A DNA stretch of 25,301 nucleotides, from positions 1 to 25,301 of the IMG/VR virus record IMGVR_UViG_3300033067_000635. One strand, 5' to 3'. Below are positions 3,335 to 25,301 of this stretch, piece after piece. Origin of the DNA: a virus (Duplodnaviria > Caudoviricetes). Both the position numbers and the translations under genes were made by a program. Below the pieces are notes generated by a model. It ran no database searches. It was given only the letters and a program-made list of their open reading frames with translations, and had not been told where the DNA came from. How positions within the stretch are numbered: the stretch's first letter is position 1; each line of letters starts with the position of its first letter.

Positions 3335-3598
3335 ATGATTAAACCATTAGGCGCACGCCTACTCATTGAACCTGTAAAACAAGACCACAAAACTAGCGGC
3401 GGCATTATGCTCGGCGAGGAGTTAGCTCCTCAGAGCCTAAAGGCTGAAGTGCTGGCAGTTGGACCAGAAGTGAAAGACTTCAAAGTTGGAGACGTGATCC
3501 TCGTATCACAGTTCGCACCTACCCAGGCTAAAGAACTCCCAACCGACAAGACACTTATCGTACCAGCTGAAGATGTGCTGGCAGTAATTGCCTCCTAG
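3335..3598 (+). CDS. groES: Phage co-chaperonin GroES (Cpn10) family protein
   Basis: IKPLGARLLI, mobile loop KTSGGIML, EVLAVGP, KVGDVI and EDVLAVI are Cpn10 signatures. SD GGAGGAT. Confidence 0.92.
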   Translation: MIKPLGARLLIEPVKQDHKTSGGIMLGEELAPQSLKAEVLAVGPEVKDFKVGDVILVSQFAPTQAKELPTDKTLIVPAEDVLAVIAS

Positions 3599-3626
3599 AG
3601 TCCCCCACGGGGCTTTATGGAGCCAA
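3588..3626 (+). other. Long imperfect stem-loop between groES and the scaffold gene
   Basis: TTG-c-CTCC-TAGAGTCCC-ccac-GGGGCTTTA-t-GGAG-c-CAA can pair end to end with G-U pairs. No U-tract follows. Confidence 0.5.
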
Positions 3627-3662
3627 TAACTCCACCATACTAATAACCAGGAAACCTGCAAA

Positions 3663-4301: not shown

Positions 4302-4333
4302 ACATAAAACCTTAAACAAGAGACTAAAACCAA

Positions 4334-5272
4334 ATGGCAACAACAAACTTAACAACTACTTCCGCTCTGTCTCCAAAGATGGCCGTATACTACGACCGCC
4401 TTATGTTGGACCGATTGCGTGAGCAGTTAGTTTTCCACCAATTTGGTCAAAGCAAACGCTTACCTGCAAACTCAGGTAAGATCGCTCAGTGGTTCCGACG
4501 CAATGACCTTGCAGCTAACACAGCTACATTGACTGAAGGTACAGTACCTACAGCAATCGGCTTGAGCGCTACAAGCATCAGTGCACAGCTTGCACAGTAT
4601 GGTGACTTCACACAGACTTCAGACCTCATCCAGATGACCTCTATCGACGATGAAATCGAAGCTGCTGTTGACACTCTATCTTTCCGAGCTGCACGAACTG
4701 TTGACGCTTTAGACCGCATCCTGCTTGACGCAGGTACAACTGTTAAATACGGGGGCAGCAAAACTGCTCTTTCAGCTACTGCAGCTGGCGACGTACTTAA
4801 CGGTGCAGAAGTTCGTAAGGGTGTAGTAACCCTTAAAAACCTAAACGCACAACCACTTGATGGTGGTTACTACGTATGGGTCATCCACCCACAAAACAGC
4901 TATGACTTACAGTCAGACACTGCTTCAGGCGGATGGGTAAATGCTAACACTTATGTAGCAACTGAAGGTATCAAGAATGGTGAAGTAGGTAAGTTCGGCG
5001 GAGCTCGCTTCGTTGAAACTACTAATGTCGCTTCAACCACATCTGGTACTTCTGGATCTGCAAACGTGTATAGCACTCACTTGCTTGCTAAGGGTGCTTT
5101 CGGTGTAGTCGACTTCGACGGAGGCGTACACACGTACGTCAAGAAATCTGGCGAACAAGACACTTCGAACCCACTCAACCAGTACGCTACGGTGGGCTAC
5201 AAATTTACATACGCCAACAAGATGTTGGACGAGAATCGTCAAGTTACGTATAAGGTGGGCTCCGCAGCCTAG
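4334..5272 (+). CDS. Major capsid protein, N4-gp56-like family (HK97 fold)
   Basis: Motifs YYDRxML, LPANSGK, TLTEGTVP, QYGDF, HPxxxYDL, GEVGKFGGARFVET and NPLNQYATVGYK are typical of N4-gp56-family capsids. Followed by a terminator. Confidence 0.93.
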   Translation: MATTNLTTTSALSPKMAVYYDRLMLDRLREQLVFHQFGQSKRLPANSGKIAQWFRRNDLAANTATLTEGTVPTAIGLSATSISAQLAQYGDFTQTSDLIQMTSIDDEIEAAVDTLSFRAARTVDALDRILLDAGTTVKYGGSKTALSATAAGDVLNGAEVRKGVVTLKNLNAQPLDGGYYVWVIHPQNSYDLQSDTASGGWVNANTYVATEGIKNGEVGKFGGARFVETTNVASTTSGTSGSANVYSTHLLAKGAFGVVDFDGGVHTYVKKSGEQDTSNPLNQYATVGYKFTYANKMLDENRQVTYKVGSAA

Positions 5273-5297
5273 TCTGTAAACCACTTCGAAACCATCT

Positions 5298-5321
5298 AAG
5301 ACCCAACAGTGGGTCTTTTTT
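5298..5321 (+). terminator. Intrinsic terminator after the capsid gene
   Basis: AAGACCCA-acag-TGGGTCTT followed by TTTT. Confidence 0.85.
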
Positions 5322-5339
5322 GGTTACATACTAAGAGTA
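5303..5339 (+). promoter_or_regulatory. Putative phage late promoter, copy 2 (CCAACA-18-CATACT-aagagta), interleaved with the terminator
   Basis: CCAACA at 5303-5308 (terminator stem/loop) and CATACT at 5327-5332; same spacing as the copies at 13450, 15027 and 19864. Confidence 0.65.
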
Positions 5340-5355
5340 TCTATAGGAGGATACA

Positions 5356-6309
5356 ATGAACATACTAATCACAGGCGGCCTAGGCTTCATAGGCTCAGCA
5401 CTGTTCAACTACTTAGGCCGTGATGATGTAGGAGGCCATGATGTCGACATACTCGATTGCTACACATACGCGGGCGACCCCAAGCGGATTGACGGTATAG
5501 CCAAGATATTCGCCATTGACATTACTCAGCCCATAAACACCAAGATTGTCAATAAGCAGTACGACTATATCCTGCACCTTGCCGCTGAAACACACGTAGA
5601 CAACTCGATCACTGACCCGGGCCGATTCGTCATGACGAACGTGGTTGGTACATACAACATGTTGGAGTTCGCTCGCAAGCAAAAGAACCTGAAAGCATTC
5701 TTGTACTTCTCAACTGACGAAGTGTTTGGACCTGCCCCCGGAAATACTCTATACAAGGAGTGGGACCGATATAACTCGGGCAATCCATACTCAGCGACTA
5801 AGGCTGGCGGGGAAGAGCTCGCCCTGGCATATGGGAACACCTATAACCTGCCCATAATGGTTACTCACACTATGAACGTATTCGGTGCGCGACAACACCC
5901 CGAGAAGTTTGTGCCTATGACCGTGGCCAAGGTGCTTAAGGGTGAGAAGGTCATCATCCACGCCAACGCTGACAAGACTAAGGCAGGCAGCCGCTTCTAC
6001 ATCCATGCCGACAACGTAGCTAAAGCTGTATGGTTTGTGCTCCAAGAGGGCAAGCTACAGGACAAATATAACATTGTAGGCGAGCAGGAAGTGGATAACC
6101 TACAACTTGCCCGGCGTATTGCTGAGATTCTAGGTAAGCCGTTGAGCTACGAGCTTGTAGACTTCCATTCTAGCCGACCTGGCCATGATCTGCGCTACGG
6201 CCTAGATGGTCATAAGCTCCATGACATGGGATGGAGGCTCCCAACAAGCTTCGATACTTCACTTGTTCAAACAGTTCAAGAGATTGCTAAGAACCCATGG
6301 CAAGAATAG
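5356..6309 (+). CDS. rmlB: dTDP-glucose 4,6-dehydratase-like NDP-sugar dehydratase (RmlB/RfbB)
   Basis: TGGLGFIGS NAD motif, HLAAETHVDNSI, STDEVFG, PYSATKA (YxxxK) and RPGHDLRY. Confidence 0.93.
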   Translation: MNILITGGLGFIGSALFNYLGRDDVGGHDVDILDCYTYAGDPKRIDGIAKIFAIDITQPINTKIVNKQYDYILHLAAETHVDNSITDPGRFVMTNVVGTYNMLEFARKQKNLKAFLYFSTDEVFGPAPGNTLYKEWDRYNSGNPYSATKAGGEELALAYGNTYNLPIMVTHTMNVFGARQHPEKFVPMTVAKVLKGEKVIIHANADKTKAGSRFYIHADNVAKAVWFVLQEGKLQDKYNIVGEQEVDNLQLARRIAEILGKPLSYELVDFHSSRPGHDLRYGLDGHKLHDMGWRLPTSFDTSLVQTVQEIAKNPWQE

Positions 6310-7070
6310 GTTTCGGCGTTGTCACGTACAACAGACCCAAGTACCTGCAAAAGGTCTGGAAAGAGGTTCAGTATAACGTCTTGCCGTTCGTAGATGAGTT
6401 TATGGTCTACAATGACGGCTCTACCGCCGACTATAAATGGCCGTTTGGCAAAATGTCCCAGGTTAAAGGTGTGGCCATTGTTGATTCTAAATCAAATCGT
6501 GGAGTTGCACACGCTAAGAACGAATTGCTGAAACGGTTAAGCGTAAATAATGACTTCATATTCATCATGGAAGATGACATCCTGCCGGTCAGCCCAAAGG
6601 TCATCCCAACCTACCTAGCGGCCTACAAAATGACCGGTATCGACCACTTTATGTTCGCACACCATGGCCCAGCGAACACTCACGCCATAGACGTGCAAGG
6701 GCCAGTCGTGTGGTGGCCTAGCTGTGTAGGGGCCTTCACCTTCTACACCAAGGACATCCTAGAGAAGGTGGGGCTAATGGATGAGAACTTCAATAACGCG
6801 TGGGAACACGTAGAACACAGCTGGAGAATCCTCAAGTCTCACAAGGTTCCCTATGGCTACTGGCCTGATGTCCTGGGGTCAGAGACCTTGCTCAAGGAAA
6901 TACCGGGCAGCATCGACAAGTCCTCCATAGGCGGGCAGGAAACCCCGGCTAGACTAAGGGTGATAGTGGACGGCCTCCTGTACTGGAAAAAGAAGGATAA
7001 GGACTTCCCGGCACAGCACACCCTAGAGATATACCAAAAAGCACTTAAGGAGGCCATAGAGAATGATTAG
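6297..7070 (+). CDS. Glycosyltransferase, GT-A fold (GT2-like)
   Basis: VVTYNRPKYL, YNDGS, NRGVAHAKN, MEDD (DxD equivalent) and KVGLMDENF. Confidence 0.88.
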   Translation: MARIGFGVVTYNRPKYLQKVWKEVQYNVLPFVDEFMVYNDGSTADYKWPFGKMSQVKGVAIVDSKSNRGVAHAKNELLKRLSVNNDFIFIMEDDILPVSPKVIPTYLAAYKMTGIDHFMFAHHGPANTHAIDVQGPVVWWPSCVGAFTFYTKDILEKVGLMDENFNNAWEHVEHSWRILKSHKVPYGYWPDVLGSETLLKEIPGSIDKSSIGGQETPARLRVIVDGLLYWKKKDKDFPAQHTLEIYQKALKEAIEND

Positions 7071-7743
7071 CATATTACTACCGAGCAGGAATCGACCCGA
7101 CAACATTAAGAGGTTGTGGGACAGCATTGTCGCAACCTCAGACGACCTGACCAACATCGAGATGATTGTAGCGGTGGATCGTGATGACCCTCAACTAAAG
7201 GCCTACGTAGAACTAAGTAAAACCGAGCCCATTCATCTGATAGTTATGGACAGGACTGTCCTATCTATCTACTGGAATGAATGCCAGAAGGCTGCTAAAG
7301 GCCCTATATACATGCACGCAGGGGACGACCTTATCTTTAGGACTCAAGGTTGGGACACACAGGTTAAGGCCGCCTTTGACGAGTATGAGGACAAGATTGT
7401 CTTTGTGCACGGTGATGATGGCGGCGGTAATGGCCAGAACTTTGGAACTCACGGTTTCATCCACAAGAACTGGGTTAATGCTGTAGGCTACTTTGTCCCA
7501 CCGTACTTCAGCTCTGACTACAATGATACTTGGTTAAACGATGTATCCAACATGTTGTCAAGGCGTAAGTATGTAGACATCCTGACCGAACATATGCACC
7601 CAGCCTTCGGTAAGGGACCTATGGACATTACCCATGAAGAGAGGCTAACGAGGCATAGAACTGACAACGTGGATGCCATGTACGCCAACAAAGCTGAAGA
7701 ACGGGTACAAGATAGTAATAAGCTAAGGGAGGTGATGAAGTGA
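7063..7743 (+). CDS. Glycosyltransferase, GT-A fold (GT2-like)
   Basis: ISILLPSRNRP, VAVDRDD, AGDDL, YNDTWL and EHMHP. Confidence 0.85.
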   Translation: MISILLPSRNRPDNIKRLWDSIVATSDDLTNIEMIVAVDRDDPQLKAYVELSKTEPIHLIVMDRTVLSIYWNECQKAAKGPIYMHAGDDLIFRTQGWDTQVKAAFDEYEDKIVFVHGDDGGGNGQNFGTHGFIHKNWVNAVGYFVPPYFSSDYNDTWLNDVSNMLSRRKYVDILTEHMHPAFGKGPMDITHEERLTRHRTDNVDAMYANKAEERVQDSNKLREVMK

Positions 7744-8939
7744 AGATAGGCATGTTAGGCATGGGCAAGCTGGGACTACCAGTAGGCCTAGCCATAGAAT
7801 CTAAAGGCCATGAAGTCAAGGGTTACGACGTAAACCCGGCCGTGACTGGCTATCTGAAAGACCGCAAGATACCTTATAGGGAAGAGGGACTCCAACCACT
7901 ATTAGATAAGACTAAGGTTGAGATGGTTGAGTCCATCGACGAACTGTGTGAATGGGCAGACATCGTGTTCTGTGCTGTCCAGACACCTCACGACCCTATG
8001 TATGAAGGAACGACTAGGCTACCAGAAGACCGCAAAGACTTTGACTATAGCTACCTTATTGAGGCTGTTAAGCAAGTACGCGACACAACCCTAGTAGTTA
8101 TTTCTACGTGTCTTCCCGGTACGTTTGACACACAGATTAAACAACATATTAGCCCTACTGTCAACTATATCTACAACCCGTTCTTTATTGCTATGGGGAC
8201 TGTACTAAAGGACTTCTTAGACCCAGAGTTTGTTCTTATTGGCGGTGATCCTGGACCCCTAGAGGGCTTCTACAGGACCATCCACCAGAAGCCCCTCCTG
8301 GTAACTGACATAACTACAGCCGAAGCTATCAAGGTATCATATAACACCTTTATTACAACCAAGACTGTCTTAGCTAACCTCTGGGGACAGATAGCCGAGA
8401 AGACAGGGGCAAATGTAGACGACATCTACAAGGCTTGGAGTATGGCTACCGATAGGCTCATCAGCCCACGCTACTTACAGGCTGGTATGTCTGATGGTGG
8501 TGGCTGTCATCCACGGGACAACATAGCCCTCTCATACATATCAGACCAGCTAGGCTTAAAGTTCAATTTCTTTGAGTCGCTTATGCTGGCCAGGGAGTCC
8601 CATGAGGAGTGGATAGCTGACTACGTCCTTAACCTCAACATCCCGCAGCCTATCTTAATACTAGGTAAGTCGTTCAAGCCTGAAACTAACATCGTCACGG
8701 GTTCTCCAGCAATACTACTTGCAAACCTCTTAGAAGAGAAGGGGGCGGCGTTCACCCAGTACGACCCTTACATAGACGAGGTTGAGCCAAACTTAGACCA
8801 GCGCCTTATCGTGGTTGTGGCTACTAAGCACGAGGTCTTCTCTACCTACAAGTTCAAACAGGGGACCGTTGTGATTGACCCGTTCGGCATCATAGCTGAC
8901 CAAGAAGGCGTTGAAGTACGCAGACTAGGCCGCCGATGA
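7740..8939 (+). CDS. UDP-glucose/GDP-mannose 6-dehydrogenase family protein
   Basis: GMGKLGLP Rossmann motif, AVQTP, YNPFF, AEAIKVSYN, catalytic GGGCHPRD and GKSFKPET. Confidence 0.93.
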   Translation: MKIGMLGMGKLGLPVGLAIESKGHEVKGYDVNPAVTGYLKDRKIPYREEGLQPLLDKTKVEMVESIDELCEWADIVFCAVQTPHDPMYEGTTRLPEDRKDFDYSYLIEAVKQVRDTTLVVISTCLPGTFDTQIKQHISPTVNYIYNPFFIAMGTVLKDFLDPEFVLIGGDPGPLEGFYRTIHQKPLLVTDITTAEAIKVSYNTFITTKTVLANLWGQIAEKTGANVDDIYKAWSMATDRLISPRYLQAGMSDGGGCHPRDNIALSYISDQLGLKFNFFESLMLARESHEEWIADYVLNLNIPQPILILGKSFKPETNIVTGSPAILLANLLEEKGAAFTQYDPYIDEVEPNLDQRLIVVVATKHEVFSTYKFKQGTVVIDPFGIIADQEGVEVRRLGRR

Positions 8940-10024
8940 AGGCTTTACTACTGCACAGTGAGAACTCCGGAGTAGGCTACTACCGTATATGGATGCAGGC
9001 CAAGTACCTCAAGAAGATAGGTTGGAACATTACTAGGCTACCCGACCAGATGCCTGTTTTGCCAAACGACGACGAAATAGGTGATAGGACCGAAGATAAA
9101 GAACTCAAGGATAACTATAGGAAACACGGCAGTTGGGAATCACTCTGTAAGGGTGCTGACATCCTCGTGTACCAGAGACCAGACGAACCGCAGACCCTAG
9201 CTATGGCTATGGCTATGCGGGATGTCTGTAATGCACCTGTGGTATTTGAGATAGATGACAACGTATTTGACGTAGCTGAAACCAACCCATCTTATAAATA
9301 CTGGTACCCTGGCTCACCCTACAGAGAACTGGCTGAGATGTTTATGCGGAATGTTGATGCTATAACTGTCACAACTCCGGCCTTGAAAGAGGTCTACAGT
9401 AAGTATAACGATAATGTAATAATCTTGCCTAATTGTCAAGACCCTGACGACTGGAAGGTTAGGAAGCCTACACCTGAAGATAAGCTGGTAGTGGGATGGG
9501 CCGGTTCGTCTACCCACTATGATGACTTAAAGGTTATCCGCCGACCTCTAAAGAAGTTCTTACGCAACTACCCTAATGCAGTATTCAGGGTTCTGGGAAC
9601 CTTACCAGACTTTCTAAAGGATATTCCTGGTGTAGAGTTCAGAACTGACTGGGTTCATGTCTCTAAGTGGCAGGAGAAACTAGCCGAACTAAACTTTGAT
9701 ATTGGTGTGGTACCAGTAGTACAGCGTCCTTTTAACGAGGGCAAGTCGAACATCAAGTGGCAAGAATACTCGATGCTTGAAGTACCAACTATTGCAAGTA
9801 AGGTTGGGGAATATAAAGAGATAGAGCCAGGCGTAACAGGCTTTCTCGCAAGTAGTGAGGCAGAGTGGTATCACCACCTCAGCAAGCTTGCGGATGACGC
9901 TCAGTTGCGGAAGACGGTAGGTAGGCAAGCCAAACAATACACCCTAGAACACCACAACATAGATAAGAGGATCAAAGACTGGGATGCAGCCTATAGAACA
10001 ATCATCGACAAGTTTCACGCTTAG
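8936..10024 (+). CDS. Glycosyltransferase, GT-B fold (GT4-like)
   Basis: SGVGYYRI, FEIDDNVF, DAITVTT, GWAGSSTHYDDL, FNEGKSNIKWQEY, PTIAS and GVTGFL. Confidence 0.9.
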   Translation: MKALLLHSENSGVGYYRIWMQAKYLKKIGWNITRLPDQMPVLPNDDEIGDRTEDKELKDNYRKHGSWESLCKGADILVYQRPDEPQTLAMAMAMRDVCNAPVVFEIDDNVFDVAETNPSYKYWYPGSPYRELAEMFMRNVDAITVTTPALKEVYSKYNDNVIILPNCQDPDDWKVRKPTPEDKLVVGWAGSSTHYDDLKVIRRPLKKFLRNYPNAVFRVLGTLPDFLKDIPGVEFRTDWVHVSKWQEKLAELNFDIGVVPVVQRPFNEGKSNIKWQEYSMLEVPTIASKVGEYKEIEPGVTGFLASSEAEWYHHLSKLADDAQLRKTVGRQAKQYTLEHHNIDKRIKDWDAAYRTIIDKFHA

Positions 10025-16056: not shown

Positions 16057-17261
16057 TGGCCGTTAAAACCGCAGCAATAATCCAATCAGGAACTTCTAAC
16101 TATCTTACACCGGCAGAGAGCTTTAACGTTGTAGCAACAGACACGCTCACCCCAGGTATCGTAGGGTCTTATACCTCAACCTCTGGCGTAGCACCTACTA
16201 CAGGCTCGTTCGCTGTAAACGCCCAAGGCTCACCAAATATGACCGTAGCGGTTAGTGCTGGACAGGCCTATGTGAACGCCACCCCTACAAGCGGTACGGC
16301 CCAGAACATCCGGGTTAAACTTGCCTCTAGCGAGAACGTCACTATCGCTGCTAACTCTACAGGTGGAACACGTTACGACTTCGTGTACATCAAGGTAGAT
16401 GCTGATAAGCTTAACAACCCAGCTGCTGACGGTACCGACGTAGTAACCCTAACTACTCAACGTTCTACAACTTCTACAGTTGACTCAAACGGTGCCCTAG
16501 CCAACGCACTCTGTATTGCTATCGTAACCGTAACCAATGGCGCAGTTGCTATTAACAACGCAGATATATCAGATTACAGAATTGCCTGTAGCTCAACATT
16601 CGATGGATGGTCTAGTGCAAACGAGTCCCATGTATATGCTAGTGCAACGACCGTCACTGTTCCAAGTGGCGCACTGTCTAAATACTCGCCGGGTGACAAA
16701 TACCGTATCTATCAGAATAATACTGTAAAGTATTTCTATATTATTGGCGTCACAAACACGCTCCTGACTATCACTGGCGGATCAGACTATACTCTTACAA
16801 ACTCTACAATCAGTAACCCTTTCTACAGTAAGCGAGCTACGCCTCTAGGGTTCCCGCAGTACTTTAATTATAGCCCTACCTGGTACAACCTAACCGTCGG
16901 ATCAGGTACGGTCATCGCCAAATTCAACTTGACTGGTGGAATGGTTCATTACTGGGGGTCATTTGTTTACGGGGCAGGGAGCGCCGTAGGGACATCTGCA
17001 TCTGTCAGCCTACCGATCCTACTAAACGCATCTGCATGGTATCCGAGTGAGAACTTCGAGTACGGTCACGCCCACTTCCAGGATACAGGGTCAGCTGCTT
17101 TTACTGGCACGTGTAGATTCGATGCTAATGATAGGCTAGTCTTCGCGGCATTGGCCTCTGGTGGCACCTACGCCTCACACGGTACCACAGCCTCAACCAT
17201 ACCGTTCACCTGGGGTACCAGCGACAAGATACAATGGAACACAGTCTACCCGGCTGTTTAA
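16056..17261 (+). CDS. Baseplate-anchored tail fibre/receptor-binding protein B (paralogue of A)
   Basis: Start moved from 16011 to ATG 16056 (TAATG overlap, GGAG upstream, aligns with the paralogue's start). Same anchor domain, different C-terminus. Confidence 0.78.
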   Translation: MAVKTAAIIQSGTSNYLTPAESFNVVATDTLTPGIVGSYTSTSGVAPTTGSFAVNAQGSPNMTVAVSAGQAYVNATPTSGTAQNIRVKLASSENVTIAANSTGGTRYDFVYIKVDADKLNNPAADGTDVVTLTTQRSTTSTVDSNGALANALCIAIVTVTNGAVAINNADISDYRIACSSTFDGWSSANESHVYASATTVTVPSGALSKYSPGDKYRIYQNNTVKYFYIIGVTNTLLTITGGSDYTLTNSTISNPFYSKRATPLGFPQYFNYSPTWYNLTVGSGTVIAKFNLTGGMVHYWGSFVYGAGSAVGTSASVSLPILLNASAWYPSENFEYGHAHFQDTGSAAFTGTCRFDANDRLVFAALASGGTYASHGTTASTIPFTWGTSDKIQWNTVYPAV

Positions 17262-17271
17262 GGAGACCACT

Positions 17272-18429
17272 ATGGCTCCTCAATACAAAATAGAAATCCT
17301 CGACCGGGACAGGAATAAAATAACGGCGGTCAAAAACTTCGCCCCGCTGGACACTGCTAATAAATGGTTGGAATACTCCAGCAAACTATCTAACTGGGGT
17401 ATCTGTAGGTTTAGGGTTGGAACCAAAGACCCTATGTTGGCTCAGCATGGCGACATCCTCCAGCCGTTCTTCAACCACGTTCGGGTGTACCGGGCTGGGG
17501 TGCTGGTATGGTCTGGTATTATTGTCCGTTGCCCAAACCGCAATAAGAACTACATAGAGGTTGAGGCCCGCAGCTACCTCTACATGCTTACAACCGTTCT
17601 AGTTAAGCACGACGCCTCAGTTACAACTGGGGATGGTAAGGACAATTACCGGACATTCGATACTGGGACCATGGCCACGGCTGTCCAAAACGTACTGACA
17701 GAAACTAAGAACTTTGTGGACTCTGGAAACATCTTAAAGGGTATGACCATAGGGACAATAGAGAACCCTAACTTTCCAGCAGGGTATGTAACCGCGGCCA
17801 ACGCGCCCCTTACAGGAACGTGGACATTCAGCTCGGACATGACTATACAGTTTGACTACCGGGATGTACTGTACTGCCTGCAAATGCTAGCTAACTACCC
17901 AGCCTGTGACTTTGAGCTGACCCAAGACCTAGTGTTCAACTTCAAGCAGTTTATGGGGTCTAAGCAACCTAGCATGATGTTCGAGTATGGTAACTACGGC
18001 TCCATAGAGGACTACAACGTCATCTTAGATGGGGCCAACATGGCCAATGACATTACTGGAGTGGCGGCCGATTATGGCAACCAGATCCTCCACGCTAGCA
18101 AGACAGATGACGCGAGTATTGCCAAGTACGGCCGAATCCAGGGTGTTGCTGCCTACATAGATGTCAAGAATAAGAACGCCCTGACCTCCAGACTACAGGA
18201 GGAACTAAGGAACACCAGCACTCCAGACGGGGAAGTCCATGTAACCCTAAATGAACGTGCCTACCCACTAGGGCAGTACGGTTTGGGCGATACAATCACA
18301 CTTCGCATAAAAGACCACATAATAGAGTTAGACAGCGTGAGAAGGATTGTAGCCATAGATGTTAAGGTTCACACAACAGGTAAAGAATCTATTCGCTTGG
18401 TTACTAACCCACCTAAGGAGGGGATATAA
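17272..18429 (+). CDS. Baseplate hub / Tal-like tail protein (Gp37-like)
   Basis: Start moved from 17161 to ATG 17272 (SD AAGGAG). RVYRAGVLVWSG, SIAKYGRIQ, YGLGDTIT and RRIVAIDV match hub/Tal-type proteins. Confidence 0.75.
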   Translation: MAPQYKIEILDRDRNKITAVKNFAPLDTANKWLEYSSKLSNWGICRFRVGTKDPMLAQHGDILQPFFNHVRVYRAGVLVWSGIIVRCPNRNKNYIEVEARSYLYMLTTVLVKHDASVTTGDGKDNYRTFDTGTMATAVQNVLTETKNFVDSGNILKGMTIGTIENPNFPAGYVTAANAPLTGTWTFSSDMTIQFDYRDVLYCLQMLANYPACDFELTQDLVFNFKQFMGSKQPSMMFEYGNYGSIEDYNVILDGANMANDITGVAADYGNQILHASKTDDASIAKYGRIQGVAAYIDVKNKNALTSRLQEELRNTSTPDGEVHVTLNERAYPLGQYGLGDTITLRIKDHIIELDSVRRIVAIDVKVHTTGKESIRLVTNPPKEGI

Positions 18430-18617
18430 TGGCAATTCACACTATAGACACTAAGACTGAAAGCCCGGACGTACTAAATATAGTCCGTGAGGGGCTTGGA
18501 ACTGTAAGCGCTGCACCTGTAATAGAAGGCCAGTCGGTTGGTAAGATTGTAATTAAGAACAACCAGATCATCGTGAATGATGGGACCAATGATAGGGTTC
18601 TTATAGGACTGTTCTAA
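18429..18617 (+). CDS. Small tail-tip protein (62 aa)
   Basis: GKIVIKNNQIIVNDGTNDRVLIG resembles the C-terminal beta-prism end of central tail fibres; TAATG coupling to the hub gene. Confidence 0.6.
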   Translation: MAIHTIDTKTESPDVLNIVREGLGTVSAAPVIEGQSVGKIVIKNNQIIVNDGTNDRVLIGLF

Positions 18618-18633
18618 TGACTGGTGGTAAACC

Positions 18634-19416
18634 ATGACCTTCGGGATGAAGGCCAGCCAGCTGGGCTATAACGTAAACACCGCTGCGGACTATCAACTAT
18701 TATACAGTTCTGAATGGCCACTACTTAAGATAGAAGCCCAGGGTACTGCAACCATAACAGACTCTGGGGTTGACCAGGTTATCTACACCCATAACCTGGG
18801 GTATTGCCCGATGTTCTGGATATACGACATATCTGGTACAAGCTCTGGACTGGTGGGCAACTTCACTATGCAGTTCAATACCAGCCAGTTTGGTGCTAAT
18901 ACAACTGAGCTAAAATACTTCAATAACTTCGCCACTAGTGGGGTGCACTACATTCGCTACGTTATATTCCGCCTAGACCTCGACACGGCCTTTACGGCAC
19001 AGAACATAAACCTGTCTCCCGGATCACAGACCCTTATAGACAACTATGGTATCAAGGTTGCTGGCCCTGGTAAGAGCATAACCTCTACAGACTATAGGGA
19101 CTACACTGTCCACTCAGATACAAGGTCGCCTATGGTACATAGCGTACTTGCGCAGAACATATCTACCCCGGATAGCACCATATTCCCAGGCGGGTACTCT
19201 GCAACTTGGACACACACTCTTGGGTACAAACCAATGTACTTTGTCTATATAAAGTCTACCAGCTATATACCCGGGATAGGGTACTACACCGGAATGCTCG
19301 GTGATGGATCCGGCAACCAGTTCTTAGACTTTGTAGGAACCTCCATTCGGGTAAGTTCGTTCGCCACAGGGGATAGGGCGTCCATTGTAATACTAAAGGA
19401 TCAACTACTACTATGA
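18634..19416 (+). CDS. Tail-tip protein with two tandem copies of a ~130-aa domain
   Basis: FGMKASQLGYNV...HNLGYCPMF is repeated as YGIKVAGPGKSI...HTLGYKPMY. Confidence 0.7.
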   Translation: MTFGMKASQLGYNVNTAADYQLLYSSEWPLLKIEAQGTATITDSGVDQVIYTHNLGYCPMFWIYDISGTSSGLVGNFTMQFNTSQFGANTTELKYFNNFATSGVHYIRYVIFRLDLDTAFTAQNINLSPGSQTLIDNYGIKVAGPGKSITSTDYRDYTVHSDTRSPMVHSVLAQNISTPDSTIFPGGYSATWTHTLGYKPMYFVYIKSTSYIPGIGYYTGMLGDGSGNQFLDFVGTSIRVSSFATGDRASIVILKDQLLL

Positions 19417-19862
19417 GTGGAATAAAGATATCCCTACCAGGCTACGATGTAAAAACAGCTACTCCAGAGCAGCTCGCACTAAGCTCAGACTACATAAGCC
19501 CAAAACTTAGGTTACAACAAACCCCTGCCCACGCGAATACGTTTAGCTATATAGTGCCAACAACCGTCACACCTGGCAGTACCACCAACATACTAGCCGT
19601 AAACCATGGATACTCCTACACGCCTGCAAGCCTGTGTCACTGGACTGGGTACATAGATAACGGACCGGGCATCGTGTCGTTTAATATATGCCCGATGATC
19701 TTAATCCAGGCACCACAAGTAGATATACGTGCCTATTGTACGCCAACACAATTCCGTCTTGATCTAGTTGTAGACGCATTCCACCCCGGTACTATAGCTG
19801 CACCAATAGGCGGTCAGACTGCTAGTTTCCGCTACTACATACTTGCTGAGTCAGGCACCTAG
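19413..19862 (+). CDS. Tail-tip protein with one copy of the same domain
   Basis: SGIKISLPGYDV...LALSSDY...HGYSYTP...FRYYIL aligns with each half of the preceding protein. Confidence 0.7.
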   Translation: MSGIKISLPGYDVKTATPEQLALSSDYISPKLRLQQTPAHANTFSYIVPTTVTPGSTTNILAVNHGYSYTPASLCHWTGYIDNGPGIVSFNICPMILIQAPQVDIRAYCTPTQFRLDLVVDAFHPGTIAAPIGGQTASFRYYILAESGT

Positions 19863-19863
19863 A

Positions 19864-19899
19864 CCAACATCTAAACTCTAGTCTGACAATACTTAGGGT
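19864..19899 (+). promoter_or_regulatory. Putative phage late promoter, copy 5 (CCAACA-18-AATACT-tagggt-ATG), leaderless, lysis module
   Basis: Motif match; ATG 19900 lies 6 nt after the hexamer; no canonical SD. Confidence 0.7.
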
Positions 19900-20202
19900 A
19901 TGAATATACAAGCAGTATTAGGGTATGGAGCTGTGCTCATTGGTATGGGCAGTATGGTCGTGTCCGGAGTTATGTGGAACGTAATTAAGGCATATAAGGA
20001 GCGGATAGACCAACTGGAGTCAGAGACTAAACGTTGTGCAGCCGACCACCAAGTCTCTCAAGGTCAGATAAAAGAACTCAAGGAACAAGTTAAAGAGTTT
20101 AAAGACCTGCCCCTGAAGGATATCCAGGAAACACAAAAAGGGATTCTAGAAACACAAAAACAAATAGTCGAACTACTAACTAGAATCGGGGACAACCAAT
20201 GA
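19900..20202 (+). CDS. Membrane protein with N-terminal TM helix and coiled coil (holin/antiholin-like)
   Basis: Hydrophobic residues 3-30 then heptad repeats; ATGA overlap with the endolysin. Confidence 0.65.
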   Translation: MNIQAVLGYGAVLIGMGSMVVSGVMWNVIKAYKERIDQLESETKRCAADHQVSQGQIKELKEQVKEFKDLPLKDIQETQKGILETQKQIVELLTRIGDNQ

Positions 20203-20957
20203 CAACCCAAGAGTTCTTCGCTAAGTATGACGGTAGGCGTATAGACTTTGATGGTAACTACGGTGCCCAATGTATGGACCTCGCGGCACAGTACATCCAG
20301 GAGGTTGTCGGGGTATCAGGGTGGAGTATCGGACGTGCAACAGCTTATCAGGTCTGGTCTGAGTTCGACGCCATATCGGCGAACCAGATATACGATAAGA
20401 TACCAAACACGCCAGAGGGAGTCCCCCAGGCTGGGGATATTGTTGTATGGGATACGTCTATAGGAAGTGCTGGGCACATTGCTGTAGCAACAGGACAAGG
20501 GGATACGAACAACTTTACAAGCTTCGACCAAAACTGGCCAGGCGGGAGTGCCAGCCACTACCAGTCTCACAACTATAACGGGGTTGTAGGTTGGTTAAGA
20601 TTAAAGAATAAACAAGGAGGCCAACCAATGGCAGAAACTAAAGAACAAGCAGAAAATAGGCTCCTACATGGACCAGGTGGCATCGACGACCTGACCATCC
20701 AGAACTATAACCTTGGCGTGCAATTAAACAACCTCAGGCAAACGGAAACTCAGCTACGTAAAGACGTAGATACCATAGCTAAGCAAGTGAAAGACTTGCA
20801 AGCCCAGGTAGCTGGTAAAGATAAGCAGATTGCCGACCTGAATACCCTCGTGGCGCAAAAGGACGCGGACATTCAAAACCTAAAGAACGCTGGGAAGATC
20901 CCAGTAGACAACAAGTGGGAGCTGTTTAAAAGCTTAATCAAGGAGTTACTAAAATAA
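20199..20957 (+). CDS. Endolysin, N-terminal CHAP domain plus C-terminal coiled coil
   Basis: DFDGNYGAQCMDL (catalytic Cys), PQAGDIVVW, AGHIAV (catalytic His), FDQNW and GVVGWLR. Confidence 0.92.
   Translation: MTTQEFFAKYDGRRIDFDGNYGAQCMDLAAQYIQEVVGVSGWSIGRATAYQVWSEFDAISANQIYDKIPNTPEGVPQAGDIVVWDTSIGSAGHIAVATGQGDTNNFTSFDQNWPGGSASHYQSHNYNGVVGWLRLKNKQGGQPMAETKEQAENRLLHGPGGIDDLTIQNYNLGVQLNNLRQTETQLRKDVDTIAKQVKDLQAQVAGKDKQIADLNTLVAQKDADIQNLKNAGKIPVDNKWELFKSLIKELLK
20628..20957 (+). CDS. Putative in-frame internal product of the endolysin gene (109-aa coiled coil, from Met144)
   Basis: AAGGAGG (20614-20620) lies 7 nt upstream of an in-frame ATG exactly at the domain boundary. Confidence 0.65.
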   Translation: MAETKEQAENRLLHGPGGIDDLTIQNYNLGVQLNNLRQTETQLRKDVDTIAKQVKDLQAQVAGKDKQIADLNTLVAQKDADIQNLKNAGKIPVDNKWELFKSLIKELLK

Positions 20958-21145
20958 TGTTTTCACCAATAACAAAAGAACAATGGGTGAGCGTAGTACG
21001 CAATAGCGTGTTCGCATTTGCCTCAGTGTTTATTGCTACCCTGCAAGTTTCAGGGGCTTTAGACAAAAAGGCCGTACTAGCTGCTGCAACTGCTGCCGGT
21101 ATGGCTGTTATCAAAATCGTTGAGAAGTCTTTGACGGAGGGCTAG
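20957..21145 (+). CDS. Holin (two TM helices, r1t-like)
   Basis: 62 aa with two hydrophobic helices (W....RN....F...FIA; AVLAAATAAGMAVIK); coupled to the endolysin stop. Confidence 0.75.
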   Translation: MFSPITKEQWVSVVRNSVFAFASVFIATLQVSGALDKKAVLAAATAAGMAVIKIVEKSLTEG

Positions 21146-21147
21146 GC

Positions 21148-21330
21148 ATGGCTACAGAAATCACTTCTACCAAAATGTCTCAGGTGATAGCTCAGCCAAA
21201 AAACGTTTTAAACGTCGAAATGGTACAAACACCCACGGAGGGCATTACCGAAGGTTCTGACGTCGACTTCCTAGCTGAAAGCGTAGCAGCCGATCCAGAC
21301 TCGTTCAATGTCTGCATATCCTGCGACTAG
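21148..21330 (+). CDS. Acidic disordered 60-aa peptide ending in CxxC (DPDSFNVCISCD)
   Basis: SD GGAGG; terminal dithiol motif like the C-terminal tails of ribonucleotide reductase large subunits. Confidence 0.7.
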   Translation: MATEITSTKMSQVIAQPKNVLNVEMVQTPTEGITEGSDVDFLAESVAADPDSFNVCISCD

Positions 21331-21348
21331 CCGAAGGTACAAGAATAT

Positions 21349-21361
21349 AAACCGAACATAA
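21349..21361 (+). repeat. 13-bp motif AAACCGAACATAA, copy 1 (inverted copy at 22005-22017)
   Basis: Exact reverse complement TTATGTTCGGTTT at 22005-22017. Both copies have TAGCCGA shortly upstream. Confidence 0.75.
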
Positions 21362-21392
21362 TGTCAAGGCTCAAGCCTAAAAGGAGGATACT

Positions 21393-21665
21393 ATGATACA
21401 AGTGAATAGGGAACAGCTGGACCGCGAGAGGGATGACTATTTAGAGGACGTTCAAATAGCAGAGCGTAGGGAAGTAGAGGAGCGGAAGTTCAAGCTGAAG
21501 CTAACAAAGGCGGAGCTGGCTGGCAAACATAAGTACAAGACTATTGAGCGATCGTTCGTAGCCTTGGCTAAGTGCATACCGTATTGCCTGTGCGTAATGG
21601 CAATTCTAATCCTATCATTGTTTGGTAGGCCAACCCCGCCAGCACTAGAGGACTTTTTGAAGTAG
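21393..21665 (+). CDS. Hypothetical 90-aa protein, charged helix plus C-terminal TM segment
   Basis: Strong SD AAGGAGG; hydrophobic CIPYCLCVMAILILSLFG. Confidence 0.8.
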   Translation: MIQVNREQLDRERDDYLEDVQIAERREVEERKFKLKLTKAELAGKHKYKTIERSFVALAKCIPYCLCVMAILILSLFGRPTPPALEDFLK

Positions 21666-21673
21666 CCATCTAT

Positions 21674-21719
21674 GAGCCACCGCGAGCCACTCTAGTGGTT
21701 ATCCTCCCCGCGGTGGTTC
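21674..21719 (+). terminator. GC-rich branched stem-loop between convergent genes (terminator or 3' regulatory element)
   Basis: GAGCCACCGCG/CGCGGTGGTTC 11-bp stem, inner AGCCAC-tcta-GTGGTT hairpin and 8-nt bulge ATCCTCCC. G-U pairs favour the + strand; the U-tract is short. Confidence 0.6.
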
Positions 21720-21992
21720 TTAAGTGGACAGCTTCCTTTCGATGTAGCGAAGCATACGTACCTTCCAAGTTCTGTTTTCTTTTTGAACCCTTGTAATGAG
21801 TGGGGGAAGCTCGTGTCTTGGGGTTATAACCTTGGCATGGCAGTGGTGGCATAGGCCGATAAAGTAACCGAACGACTGCGTAGTGGGGTCGTATAAATAC
21901 TTGCCGGGCTTCATTGGACGTCCTGGCTTCCTATACTTTGACTTGACTGGCAGCTGGGTAATCAGTTGCTGTTGGGCATAATCGTCGTGCAT
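21720..21992 (-). CDS. Hypothetical basic 90-aa protein (RKPGRP AT-hook-like, CHHCH)
   Basis: SD AAAGGAG 4 nt before ATG, own promoter upstream, stop abuts the hairpin. Confidence 0.75.
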   Translation of the reverse strand: MHDDYAQQQLITQLPVKSKYRKPGRPMKPGKYLYDPTTQSFGYFIGLCHHCHAKVITPRHELPPLITRVQKENRTWKVRMLRYIERKLST

Positions 21993-22004
21993 GTGACTCC
22001 TTTC

Positions 22005-22017
22005 TTATGTTCGGTTT
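22005..22017 (-). repeat. 13-bp motif AAACCGAACATAA, copy 2
   Basis: Inverted copy of 21349-21361, immediately upstream of the SD of the leftward gene. Confidence 0.75.
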
Positions 22018-22033
22018 TTAATCGGCTACCTTT

Positions 22034-22074
22034 ATGATAGCAGATTAGTATAGCAGATTGCCATAACCAAACAA
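22034..22074 (-). promoter_or_regulatory. Leftward promoter(s): TTGTTT-16-(TGc)TATACT and a second TGcTATCAT, built on a 10-bp direct repeat
   Basis: ATAGCAGATT at 22037-22046 and 22050-22059; each copy gives an extended -10 on the minus strand. Confidence 0.55.
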
Positions 22075-22075
22075 G

Positions 22076-22112
22076 CATGAGCGTTGACAAAGAGCTCATG
22101 GTTAGATAAAAT
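22076..22112 (+). promoter_or_regulatory. Rightward sigma70 promoter TTGACA-17-TAAAAT with overlapping palindrome CATGAGC-N11-GCTCATG (putative operator)
   Basis: -35 at 22084-22089 and -10 at 22107-22112; inverted-repeat arms at 22076-22082 and 22094-22100 straddle the -35. Confidence 0.85.
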
Positions 22113-22318
22113 GGATATTAACGAACTTTGACATTCAAATATGGATAAACCCATATAAGCTAGTCATTGACTGAACGTACTCGTTCAGGTTTAGAAATAA
22201 TTACCGCTTCGCAAAAGGTACAAATGTCGACATAGTAGTTTTCGCTAACCTGTAAAGTACGAAATGCCTTAATTTTGTTTTGGTGTTTTCACTAAACACG
22301 AGTTTTTCAGTCAGGTTC

Positions 22319-22347
22319 ATTATACCACGCACTAGCTTATATGGCTA
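22319..22347 (-). promoter_or_regulatory. Antisense promoter TAGCCA-17-(TGg)TATAAT reading back into the leader
   Basis: Perfect extended -10 TGGTATAAT (22327-22319) and a 4/6 -35 at 17-nt spacing; predicted start near 22312. Confidence 0.65.
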
Positions 22348-22356
22348 GTGTTTTTT
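22330..22356 (+). terminator. Conditional intrinsic terminator upstream of the replication operon
   Basis: CACTAGC-ttatatg-GCTAGTG followed by TTTTTT. Confidence 0.85.
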
Positions 22357-22367
22357 GTTACAAAATA

Positions 22368-22446
22368 CCCGACCGTCTTAGGCTGAGTTTCGGCAAAAGG
22401 CTCGGCGGCTTGGCGGCACTTCGGTGCTTAGCCTATGGCGGTTGGG
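22368..22446 (+). ncRNA. 79-nt GC-rich branched RNA structure directly before the first replication-operon SD
   Basis: CCCGACCGTC/GGCGGTTGGG and TAGGCTGA/TTAGCCTA stems enclose a GCAC-TTCG-GTGC (cUUCGg) hairpin; several G-U pairs. Confidence 0.7.
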
Positions 22447-22459
22447 AAAGGAGGAAAGT

Positions 22460-22588
22460 ATGAACCCAAGTAGGGTAATAATCGCTAAAGACTGGGCGGA
22501 CCTACTAACTAAAATCTATGGCTATGAGCTAAAGAGAATTGTATGGGCCCAGATCAGCAAAGACCAATTAAAAGTAGGAGTTAGATAA
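22460..22588 (+). CDS. 42-aa protein MNPSRVIIAKDWADLLTKIYGYELKRIVWAQISKDQLKVGVR (below ORF-track cutoff)
   Basis: SD AAAGGAGG 5 nt upstream; TAATG overlap with the next gene. Confidence 0.75.
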   Translation: MNPSRVIIAKDWADLLTKIYGYELKRIVWAQISKDQLKVGVR

Positions 22589-23088
22589 TGGACAACGACA
22601 AACCAGCTAGAGAGTATACAGATTTCACGAAGGATGATGTCGTGGTGGGTGAGGGCTCAAGCTTTGACGATTACGTCAAGTTAGAGCCAGGCGAGCCGTA
22701 CAAGGCACATGTAGTCGAGATCAAGAAGGGCTCTAAGATGAAGAACGGTGAGCTTGTTGAAGGATGGATGTATGTTTGGTACGAGCTAGACGAGGGCGAA
22801 GGCAAGGGTCAACGGTATAGGGGTGATTTCAACCCAGTACTGTCTCCTAAGTCAAACCTACAGAAGTTCGTAGACCTAATCTATGGCACACACCAGTCAG
22901 TCTTTGACCCGAATGATGTCATTGGGAAGCCTGTAAGGGTTCTACTGTCTGAGCCTTGGGGTGAAAAAGGGCTGCAGTTTGTAGCGAGCTACCTAAAGCC
23001 AACGGCAGACCAAAAGAAAGTTGAACAGGACGAAGACCTAGATACCGTTAAGGCTGTATTCGGGGACGACGTTAAATCAGTTAGCTAA
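22588..23088 (+). CDS. Putative single-stranded DNA-binding protein (OB-fold, DUF669-like)
   Basis: LEPGEPYKAHVVEI, WYEL..GEGKGQR, SPKSNL.KF and DVIGKPVRV, with an acidic C-tail; lies in the replication operon. Confidence 0.6.
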   Translation: MDNDKPAREYTDFTKDDVVVGEGSSFDDYVKLEPGEPYKAHVVEIKKGSKMKNGELVEGWMYVWYELDEGEGKGQRYRGDFNPVLSPKSNLQKFVDLIYGTHQSVFDPNDVIGKPVRVLLSEPWGEKGLQFVASYLKPTADQKKVEQDEDLDTVKAVFGDDVKSVS

Positions 23089-23101
23089 TAAGGAGGGTGC
23101 G

Positions 23102-23287
23102 GTGGAAAAGATTACAAAGGCCGAGGTGCAACTAGCAGCAATTCGGATTCACTTGGATGGTGTGGCTTTCTACCGCACCGCTTACGAAAAGGGAGAAGAC
23201 AGTAACGCTGTCATAGAGTACCTGACCGTAGTGGAAGATGCCATAAAACAAATAGATGAGATAGTCAATGGCAAGCCCGCAAGTTGA
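23102..23287 (+). CDS. Hypothetical helical protein (61 aa)
   Basis: SD AAGGAGG before a GTG start. Confidence 0.75.
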   Translation: MEKITKAEVQLAAIRIHLDGVAFYRTAYEKGEDSNAVIEYLTVVEDAIKQIDEIVNGKPAS

Positions 23288-24038
23288 AAACGGGGCGGTA
23301 AGTATCGCTACTAGCTTGCACCAAGCGATATTCCAAACAGACTTTACAAGCTTGGAACGCAGGGTGCTTGACATAGTGATATATATGACGTATGGCTATA
23401 GTCGAACAAAGACAGAATTGTCCGTTCATGACATACGCTATTTACTAGGCCCCATAGACAAAAACCGAACAGACAGAATACAGAAAACGTTGGACGGATT
23501 GCTTGCTAAAAGAGTGCTTTTTAACCAAGAGATTGGCGAGGGCAGGTTCTTAATAGGCGTCCAGAAAGACTATGATAAATGGCTTACCGAGGTTCCAAAA
23601 CATGACAAAATGTCAGGTATACAGTTGTATTCTAATAATATAACTAATAGCTACAGTATACATGACAAAATGTCACCTACTGAGACTCTCGTTAAATATA
23701 CTTGCAAGGCTTTGAACTTAAGCTTCCCGGTTAAACTGCTTGGAATTGAGCGTAACCGAGCTAAGATTCTTTACCTGCGAGTACTCAAAGAACTTGGTGA
23801 ACCCATACCTACTCTTTTCTTCTTAAAAGACTGCGTGGATATGATTGCCGAGGATAAATACGTGCTGGAAAACGTTCGGTTCCCGATGGCTTACATGGCT
23901 AACCAGATAGATACCTGGCTGGCTCGTACGCCGAAAAAGACCCGAAGCGTAAAAATAGATGAGGAGCTTACAGGCTACCGATTCAGGTACGACATTAAAA
24001 AAGGAAGGTGGGTGAAGAGTGCAGACAAACTTGTTTGA
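23268..24038 (+). CDS. Replication initiator, lambda O-like N-terminal domain
   Basis: PQVENG..IA..L, FTSLERRVL.....TYGY and IGVQKDYDKW match Phage_rep_O proteins; internal repeats plus an AT-rich tract. Confidence 0.85.
   Translation: MASPQVENGAVSIATSLHQAIFQTDFTSLERRVLDIVIYMTYGYSRTKTELSVHDIRYLLGPIDKNRTDRIQKTLDGLLAKRVLFNQEIGEGRFLIGVQKDYDKWLTEVPKHDKMSGIQLYSNNITNSYSIHDKMSPTETLVKYTCKALNLSFPVKLLGIERNRAKILYLRVLKELGEPIPTLFFLKDCVDMIAEDKYVLENVRFPMAYMANQIDTWLARTPKKTRSVKIDEELTGYRFRYDIKKGRWVKSADKLV
23600..23675. repeat. Putative replication origin: two 16-bp direct repeats ACATGACAAAATGTCA flanking an AT-rich spacer
   Basis: Exact copies at 23600-23615 and 23660-23675, each containing the palindrome TGACA-aaa-TGTCA; located inside the initiator gene. 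Confidence 0.75.
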
Positions 24039-24279
24039 TAAACCAGTGACTAAAGAAACCTTCGCCCCTAACCTTACGGCGGAGTACGAGAAACGCTACC
24101 AGGAGTTGACTAGGGCTCAGCAGTTACGTTACCAACGTGAAGACATCGACAACGAACGGGTACAGATAAAGTTCTGGGGTGAGTTTCGTGACAAGGTTAC
24201 GGACGAGACAACCAAGGAAATGGTCAACGACATCTTATCCCGCCACCTCACAAAGCTGTCGGAGCTGTTGCGATGTTAG
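24019..24279 (+). CDS. Hypothetical helical protein (86 aa) between initiator and helicase
   Basis: Overlaps both neighbours; possible helicase accessory (inference); start uncertain. Confidence 0.7.
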   Translation: MQTNLFDKPVTKETFAPNLTAEYEKRYQELTRAQQLRYQREDIDNERVQIKFWGEFRDKVTDETTKEMVNDILSRHLTKLSELLRC

Positions 24280-25166
24280 AGATTACTGGACCACTTAACC
24301 GCAGGATGACTAACGAAGAGGCTAGGAACCTGCTTGACCAGCTTATCCAGAAGGTTGACCCCATGACAGGCAAGGCTGCTGACCTGATACCTGTCGCGTC
24401 AACCGTAGAGGAGGCTGTAAAGCGAATACCTAAACCAGGCCAGATTGTAGGCTTATCCACTGGCTACGCCGACATCGACAAGATGACAGGCGGTCTAGCC
24501 CCTGGAGAGGTTTCAGTCTGGTACGGCGGTACCTCAACAGGTAAGTCACAGCTTACCCAGAACATCGCCTTGAATATGGCGCAGGCAGGCATACCAATGC
24601 TGATGTTGCCACTAGAGATGGGCGTATACCTCAACACCGCTAGGTTGATGACCCTTTGGGGCCCCGACAATGCCTACGAATTCGCAAAGCTCCCCATCTA
24701 TTACCCTGACACTAAGAGGATGGATGTTACCACCTTAGCTAACACGGTAAGGGACGGGGTAGACAAACTAGGTATAAGGGCAGTTGTGGTAGACCAACTT
24801 CAACAGCTAGTACCTAGAACTGGGGCAAACCTAGTAGAGGCTATCAGCTCAACAACCGATGAGCTACACAAGATAGCCGATGAGAGTCAGGTACATATCC
24901 TGCTAATCTCACACATTAACCGCACTGGCGATCCAGGCACCGCCCCCAAGCTCTCTGAGCTGAAGGGCTCCGGGTCGATAGAACAGGATGCTGACATATG
25001 TGTTGGACTATACAGGGACACCGAGGATGACGCACCAGAGAAGGGATACCGTTCCCCGCTGATGCTACACCTCACCAAGAATAGAAACCGTGGGACCGAG
25101 AACTACAAGGCATCGCTTGGGTTTGAAGGGATGCGGTTGGTAAGTAGAACCTTGAAATTACAGTAG
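24273..25166 (+). CDS. DnaB-like (SF4) replicative helicase, essentially the C-terminal ATPase domain
   Basis: GLSTGY.DID..TGGL, Walker A GGTSTGKS, LEM, Walker B VVVDQLQ, LISHINR, LKGSGSIEQDAD and KNRNRG. Confidence 0.93.
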   Translation: MLEITGPLNRRMTNEEARNLLDQLIQKVDPMTGKAADLIPVASTVEEAVKRIPKPGQIVGLSTGYADIDKMTGGLAPGEVSVWYGGTSTGKSQLTQNIALNMAQAGIPMLMLPLEMGVYLNTARLMTLWGPDNAYEFAKLPIYYPDTKRMDVTTLANTVRDGVDKLGIRAVVVDQLQQLVPRTGANLVEAISSTTDELHKIADESQVHILLISHINRTGDPGTAPKLSELKGSGSIEQDADICVGLYRDTEDDAPEKGYRSPLMLHLTKNRNRGTENYKASLGFEGMRLVSRTLKLQ

Positions 25167-25301
25167 ATAAATAAGCGGAGAGCACACACTCTAAGCACGT
25201 TCGTAATGCTAAAAACAAAAACATACTGGGTGCCGTCAGCCCAGACAGTGACGGTCAAATGGCTCTGCTCTTACGTGGTTAGCAGCAGCCCAGTAGCCAA
25301 C

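Follow-up and report, generated by a model that had tools for sequence, protein, structure and literature searches.

A leader of ~240 nt preceding the replication operon of a tailed phage very probably contains a terminator/antiterminator switch, and on balance we favor its interpretation as a transcription attenuator of that operon triggered by an antisense RNA initiated from a promoter lying inside the terminator. The leader is carried by a 25,301-nt stretch of DNA (the window), positions 1 to 25,301 of IMG/VR record IMGVR_UViG_3300033067_000635 (Duplodnaviria; Caudoviricetes), which is linear and 66% complete according to CheckV. The switch is well supported by its conservation, by pair-keeping changes, and by the prediction of the same stepwise switch in a diverged phage (L122).

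Genes along the window are ordered from capsid, sugar-modifying, and tail genes to CHAP lysis genes, followed by a rightward replication operon, and the leader region occupies the gap separating the lysis genes from the replication genes (Table 1). The sequencing runs containing this stretch are labeled as wastewater, sludge, river, and other aquatic samples. The closest annotated relatives of the helicase and capsid proteins are only 27 to 36% identical. In the operon, the 166-aa protein had been labeled SSB in an earlier note on this DNA made from the sequence alone; its gene matched no family in Pfam or PHROG, and the protein can be called SSB-like by position only. Elsewhere in the window, a 60-aa ORF (21148-21330) without a family match has its last 15 residues, ending in CISCD, identical in L122, while the remainder drifts. 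A GroES gene adjoins the capsid gene and is followed by an epimerase gene, three glycosyltransferase genes, and a UDP-glucose dehydrogenase gene (3335-10024), a cluster possibly involved in virion glycosylation.

Table 1. Features of the leader region and of the neighboring genes (window coordinates)
Feature	Position	Strand	Remarks
G+C-rich hairpin (long)	21666..21727	+	Between convergent late genes and the 90-aa gene
90-aa basic protein gene	21720..21992	-	GRxMxPG...CxxC...VRLL family; Shine-Dalgarno-like site
TAGCA repeats and candidate leftward extended -10 (22055-22047) for the 90-aa gene	22030..22068	-	Similar in L122
Predicted antisense RNA	22066..22312	-	~240-245 nt, both ends predicted
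Hairpin centered on the rightward -35	22073..22103	-	Candidate antisense 3' end; letters differ per allele
Rightward promoter, TTGACA-17-TAAAAT	22084..22112	+	11/12 match to sigma70 consensus
Leader RNA	22119..22358	+	~240 nt if terminated; predicted start site
5' masking domain	22129..22166	+	UGAC/GUCA plus 22139-22156 hairpin
Antiterminator strand	22151..22164	+	14 nt; perfect inverted pair with 22331-22344
Long nested rod	22168..22313	+	22168-75/22306-13, 22179-84/22298-303, 22186-90/22248-52; all in MFE
Early local hairpin	22171..22188	+	Replaced later by the long rod in predicted folding
Apical loop region	22211..22225	+	14/15 letters kept in L122 though the stem changes
Counter-promoter, TAGCCA-17-TG(G)TATAAT	22319..22347	-	Inside the terminator
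Intrinsic terminator	22329..22358	+	Stem 22329-22351, 9 pairs, then T run
Branched RNA structure	22368..22446	+	Just 5' of ribosome site 22448-22454, first operon gene
First operon genes	22460..23287	+	42-aa ORF (ATG 22460), 166-aa acidic-tailed protein, 61-aa ORF
Lambda-O-like replication initiator	23268..24038	+	PF04492, E 5e-10
DnaB-like helicase	24273..25166	+	PF03796, E 8e-33; phrog_19

All of the sequence elements on which the earlier note had built its switch, namely, the rightward promoter, the terminator located upstream of the replication genes, the 14-nt antiterminator with its three nested stems, the two competing local hairpins, and the counter-promoter, were found in the window. 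The rightward promoter is the best of six sites in the interval 19000-25301 and matches the consensus at 12/12 positions in L122 and 11/12 in the short allele of two further IMG/VR phages (L118 and L119) described below. Pattern and position place an intrinsic terminator in the leader of the replication operon, with predicted energies of -12.5 kcal/mol in the window, -12.2 in L122, and -9.0 in the short allele. Since neither the promoters (6 versus 7.7 in shuffled sequences) nor the terminators (6 versus 6.0) of the interval 19000-25301 exceed chance, the weight of these elements rests on their arrangement and conservation. No other promoter matching the consensus at 9/12 or more positions is present between the terminator and the operon start. 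The predicted fold of the leader is unusually stable (z = -4.2, with 0/200 shuffles as stable), as is that of L122 (z = -8.0). The 14-nt inverted pair exceeds chance: in 1,500 versions of the 240-nt leader shuffled by dinucleotides, the longest pair obtained had 12 nt. Among 209 windows of 240 nt tiled along the contig, no pair was longer than 9, but no tile contains both arms of the 14-nt pair.

L122 carries the whole region, its proteins being 42% (166-aa protein), 50% (initiator), and 69% (helicase) identical to those of the window. The two leaders are identical in 193 of 244 columns (79%). Identity is lower in the divergent promoter region (73%), in the downstream hairpin (69%), and in six flanking genes (50 to 68%). 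Despite four substitutions, none of the 14 antiterminator pairs is broken in L122: 11 are unchanged, 2 are converted to G-U, and 1 is changed on both sides. The two-sided change, in the loop of the terminator, disrupts the outer pair of a local hairpin and can therefore be explained only by the long-range helix. The G-U substitutions fit a function in the plus-strand RNA. Random placement of the 48 observed substitutions kept all 14 pairs in 1.6% of cases (0.4% with at least four substitutions in the helix), and placement of four substitutions on the 28 positions kept all pairs in 2%; these values (P of 0.004 to 0.02) are rough, since the helix had been chosen in the window itself and substitution rates are not uniform across the leader. 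In the rod, the outer (8/8) and inner (5/5) pairs are identical in L122 and the register of the middle stem is shifted; the early hairpin has one two-sided change. The covariation thus described rests on two full alleles and on a single two-sided change in the key helix.

Among the phage records retrieved, just two contain the full leader. Searches with a gapped leader pattern, with 90-aa alignments, and with an initiator alignment returned the same three phages and no others. A scan with the 14-mer gave 116 viral loci and, besides the locus of the window itself, none of the 80 checked was followed within 500 nt by 9 or more complementary bases. Comparison by blastn with phages and plasmids (72,556 plasmids) revealed no match to the leader. 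L129 was discarded as a homologue because it is an unrelated prophage, and the single 13-residue match obtained in a genome scan was judged spurious. Two other candidate signals were rejected: a leader peptide starting at ATG 22141, which has 5 codons here, 9 in L122, and no ribosome site, and the conserved 8 nt that open the leader, since 35 of 38 loci with the promoter plus TAACGAAC were unrelated.

Folding of leader prefixes of increasing length predicted the same order of events in both long alleles: 5' hairpins, the rod by 200 nt, the antiterminator helix, and finally the terminator. The antiterminator helix appears once the 5' arm and loop of the terminator have emerged and reaches P = 0.99 at 226 to 230 nt in the window and at 228 to 230 nt in L122; from 233 nt onward, the terminator is favored in both alleles. 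These values come from equilibrium folding of the prefixes rather than from simulated kinetics. The masking domain hides the antiterminator strand in the predicted OFF fold. The OFF fold of the terminated-length RNA is 2.4 and 4.2 kcal/mol below the ON fold. The finished RNA thus favors the terminator, and the ON state would have to be held kinetically. In equilibrium folds, the antiterminator still forms when the nested stems alone are blocked. It also persists (P = 0.99 at 22346) when the last 20 to 125 nt before 22312 are held unpaired, drops to P = 0.77 and 0.51 with 150 nt unpaired, and is abolished by full coverage. One folding step later, the probability of the terminator in the window rose from 0.50 to 0.88 when 20 nt were blocked.

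The motif TGnTATAAT occurs once over both strands of the 25.3-kb window, in the counter-promoter. Both hexamers and the TG are kept in L122 while letters of the spacer change, and the consensus match would place the RNA over the leader but not over the terminator in the two phages. This conservation may have other causes, since the -35 also belongs to the terminator stem and part of the -10 can pair in a small sense hairpin. The antisense RNA is predicted to start at ~22312, just outside the terminator. Its length was given as ~150 nt in the earlier note; this is probably wrong, since the only candidate minus-strand end hairpin found lies over the rightward -35, which would probably give ~240 to 245 nt. 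That hairpin is not significantly stable in the window (z = -1.1), with z = -3.2 in L122 and -1.2 in the short allele. It is called as a terminator in L122 only, ~240 nt downstream of the counter-promoter, and not in the window; it is also present in the short allele, though the antisense -10 is missing there. The pairing of GACUGAA with UUCAGUC ascribed to the antisense RNA exists but is the mirror image of a sense stem and is thus not independent evidence. In X17, X18, and X19, of which two are metatranscriptome runs and the third may be an RNA run, only scattered contigs were present, several of them from relatives, and none across the 3' half of the leader. In each allele, an imperfect palindrome overlaps the -35 or the spacer of the rightward promoter (window, 22073-22103; L122, 3481-3505; L118, 4681-4698). 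A leftward promoter-like site in the left end of another relative (L132, ~1505-1552) likewise has a palindrome, the letters differing each time.

The two promoters face each other and would also interfere. A purely cis-acting reading, in which transcriptional interference or collision does the work, the antisense RNA does little, and the antiterminator lets the rightward polymerase pass when it wins, would draw on the ~195-nt overlap between the convergent promoters and on the occlusion of the minus promoter by a polymerase paused in the terminator; interference of this type is part of pIP501 control, according to PMC4981023. We consider this reading improbable, since it leaves unexplained the conserved 5' masking domain, the two-sided change in the early hairpin, and the conserved apical loop.

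The apical loop is a candidate recognition site. Its conservation over a drifting stem suits a fixed protein or ligand partner as well as an RNA partner. One X3 contig lacks one base at 22222, on the 3' side of this loop (depth of 5; possibly an error). The conserved loop, combined with the layout of masking domain, antiterminator, and terminator, is what would be expected of an orphan riboswitch sensing a metabolite or a host RNA, with the central rod as the aptamer. Rfam, which includes the C4 and IsrK families, gave no match at the gathering score over the window and none at E ≤ 5 over 21640-22480; over L122, it gave two weak matches outside the leader, far below the cutoffs, and none in the leader itself. 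The view that the element belongs to no known Rfam family was thus borne out. No covariance model of the known riboswitch and T-box classes matched the leader. The element is moreover AU-rich, rod-like, found in just two of the phage records retrieved, and dispensable in sibling phages, and a riboswitch would not need the conserved counter-promoter; sensing of this type is very improbable. A ColE1-type primer RNA origin would be unlikely beside an O-like initiator.

The divergent 90-aa protein is a candidate protein partner of the switch. It is 57% identical to its L122 counterpart and belongs to a family of 32 representatives, for which no Pfam or NCBIfam name is common to more than 1 of 35 members and no member of the 35 matches a Pfam HTH domain at E ≤ 0.1. 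The model (pLDDT of 85) consists of a β-hairpin with the CxxC motif and two helices. The best hit of a fold search was at noise level (Z = 3.0), and Foldseek returned none at E ≤ 0.001. A feature-based match to T5 nicking-endonuclease clusters (Atlas, 0.94) is an unconfirmed lead. The TAGCA repeats upstream of the gene may be an operator. The joint loss of this gene and of the leader in the short allele suggests a single module, although it is a single event, and makes doubtful the RNA-only switch proposed in the earlier note.

This loss, which spares the promoter located between the gene and the leader, is also what would be expected if the protein bound the leader, for example at the apical loop, and set the choice between terminator and antiterminator, the counter-promoter serving mainly to drive the 90-aa gene through the rightward promoter. 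Conservation of the loop over a variable stem, the basic character of the protein, its CxxC motif, and the presence of PC4/Pur-alpha nucleic-acid binders among the weak fold matches (Z of 2.3 to 2.5) point in the same direction. However, all fold matches are at noise level, and a candidate extended -10 of its own lies close to the 90-aa gene; control by the protein in place of the antisense RNA appears unlikely to us.

From 22331 onward, L118 and L119 share 99.5% identity with the window; they carry 76 bp in place of 595 bp (21736-22330). L118 is letter-identical to the window over 517 bp to the left of 21735 and over 1,017 bp to the right of 22331. In this short allele, the rightward promoter is fused to the terminator, and the 90-aa gene, antiterminator, rod, and antisense -10 are all missing. 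The short joint was found in three of four runs (X3, X12, and X13), with long-allele contigs alongside in X3 and X12, and individual contigs from X3 and X7 extend across the long leader, so that an assembly artifact was rejected. Contig depth in X12 and X13 is higher for the short allele than for the long form. A third long-type relative, from run X17, covers 21802-22176 and has indels near the promoter in common with the short allele. These shared indels, with L122 as the outgroup, suggest that two deletions gave rise to the short form, which would spread by recombination. The G+C-rich hairpin forming the left border of the swappable cassette is very stable, has an asymmetric bulge (z = -5.3 in the window and -5.7 in L122), and is kept in all three alleles. 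Compared with positions 17259-25243 of the window (with L132 10705-12000), L118 is a mosaic, with 99.5% identity in the replication genes, ~89% in the tail and lysis genes, and ~71% near the first gene of the window.

The chief argument against an obligatory gate comes from the short allele. Although the switch precedes the initiator/helicase operon, gating of that operon, as claimed in the earlier note, is doubtful, since near-identical phages without the leader keep the promoter and a weaker terminator. Because these siblings keep the terminator without the antiterminator, in three of four runs, the terminator must leak or be overridden otherwise. In the short allele, a 6-bp competing hairpin reaches P = 0.78 before the 3' arm of the terminator is made and, together with the weaker terminator (-9.0 versus -12.5 kcal/mol), would allow leakage. 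The branched structure downstream of the terminator is present in all alleles, the short one included (z of -4.1 and -4.3), has 3 two-sided changes among 29 predicted pairs between two phages, and has no Rfam match; it may act in processing, stability, or translation.

A small RNA could also be the main product of the locus (~240 nt, or ~50 nt in the short allele), with a leaky terminator, an operon expressed by read-through, and a 14-bp helix that tunes the leak. The short allele, with its promoter and terminator, no antiterminator, and greater depth than the long form (X12 and X13), would suit such a product, as would the preference of the finished RNA for the terminator fold. Against it stand the antiterminator substitutions that preserve pairing, the stepwise switch of both long alleles, and the search for a trans target: the best non-self match to the leader in the parts of the phage genomes searched had an E value of 0.94, providing no convincing target. 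We assign little probability to this explanation.

Under the antisense-triggered attenuation that we favor, small 5' hairpins would form first in the leader RNA, and the long rod would close next, placing the 14-mer beside the emerging terminator arm. The antiterminator helix would then form before the 3' arm of the terminator is made, leading to read-through by default. The RNA from the counter-promoter would cause termination: as it would cover the antiterminator strand and not the terminator, the terminator would stay free when this RNA is bound. As with CopR in pIP501, the role of the 90-aa protein would be to tune one of the promoters. The short allele would be unregulated, with leaky read-through past the weaker terminator and the 6-bp competing hairpin.

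The leader likely works as in pT181 and pIP501 attenuation, with unrelated sequence, neither Rfam nor blastn against the 72,556 plasmids relating it to the RNAs of these plasmids. In the pT181 repC leader, as described in PMC5703833, a pre-emptor strand pairs by default with the 5' arm of the terminator, and the leader is covered by a counter-transcript, RNAI. The leader studied here similarly precedes a replication initiator gene and combines a pre-empting strand with a predicted counter-transcribed RNA. The differences concern the length of that RNA (87 nt for RNAI versus ~240 to 245 nt predicted here), the replication genes (an RCR Rep versus a phage operon with an O-like initiator and a helicase), and the terminator, which contains the ribosome site in pT181, whereas it lies ~100 nt before it here, with a second structure in between. 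In both pT181 and pIP501, the antisense start is just outside the terminator, according to PMC5703833 and PMC4981023. PMC4981023 describes pIP501 as having convergent sense and antisense promoters and a small co-regulator, CopR, both control parts being nonessential. The copR/RNAIII/repR region of pIP501 resembles the present one by its long leader, its convergent promoters, and the adjacent gene for a ~90-aa protein. Both control parts, nonessential in pIP501, are absent here from a natural variant which, unlike in the pIP501 case, also lacks the antiterminator yet keeps the terminator. CopR is an XRE/HTH_3 repressor of the rep promoter, whereas the 90-aa protein is divergently encoded, has no HTH_3 match, and is modeled as a β-hairpin/CxxC and two-helix fold. 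RNAIII has 136 nt, versus ~240 to 245 nt for the RNA predicted here.

Phage P4 holds back its replication genes by a same-strand RNA, according to PMC4825925. The P4 CI RNA and its seqA/seqC sites, as well as IsrK, are similar to the present case in that phage replication genes are withheld by RNA-induced premature termination. However, the CI RNA arises by processing of that same transcript and base-pairs with seqA and seqC, whereas the candidate regulator originates here from the opposite strand. No Rfam match to the P4 CI or P1 C4 type was found, and no second site matching the leader beyond chance was present in the genome parts searched. We found no description of the element in the literature; no match was present in the portion searched of the 10,000 candidate viral RNAs listed with PMC10690425, and the element may be among the others.

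PF00589, PF01381, PF13614, and PF07508 matched none of the four phage records (66 to 88% complete), and no tyrosine integrase, serine recombinase, HTH_3, or ParA was detected in these incomplete records. The same domains were absent among 28 further proteins compared with PHROGs, 24 of which were picked from the extra DNA of the relatives. Thus, no classical repressor was found in these records. A broader proposal, which is possible but rather unlikely, is that 21736-22330 is an exchangeable control cassette made of the 90-aa protein and a two-state leader with its antisense RNA, providing the sole replication switch of a phage without integrase, repressor, or partition gene and leading to a quiet carrier state or immunity, with the 76-bp variants being constitutive.

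Antisense-driven attenuation of replication is textbook knowledge for Gram-positive plasmids, as is same-strand RNA immunity for P4-like phages. If our interpretation is correct, attenuation by an opposite-strand RNA would operate before the initiator/helicase operon of a tailed phage, together with a small protein of no known family, and the mechanism would be extended to phages without a recognizable repressor. The long and short alleles, which differ in the switch but otherwise have identical flanks and at times coexist in one sample, would offer a natural control for the function of the switch. An attenuator/antisense pair of unrelated sequence may also be of use to builders of orthogonal RNA regulators.
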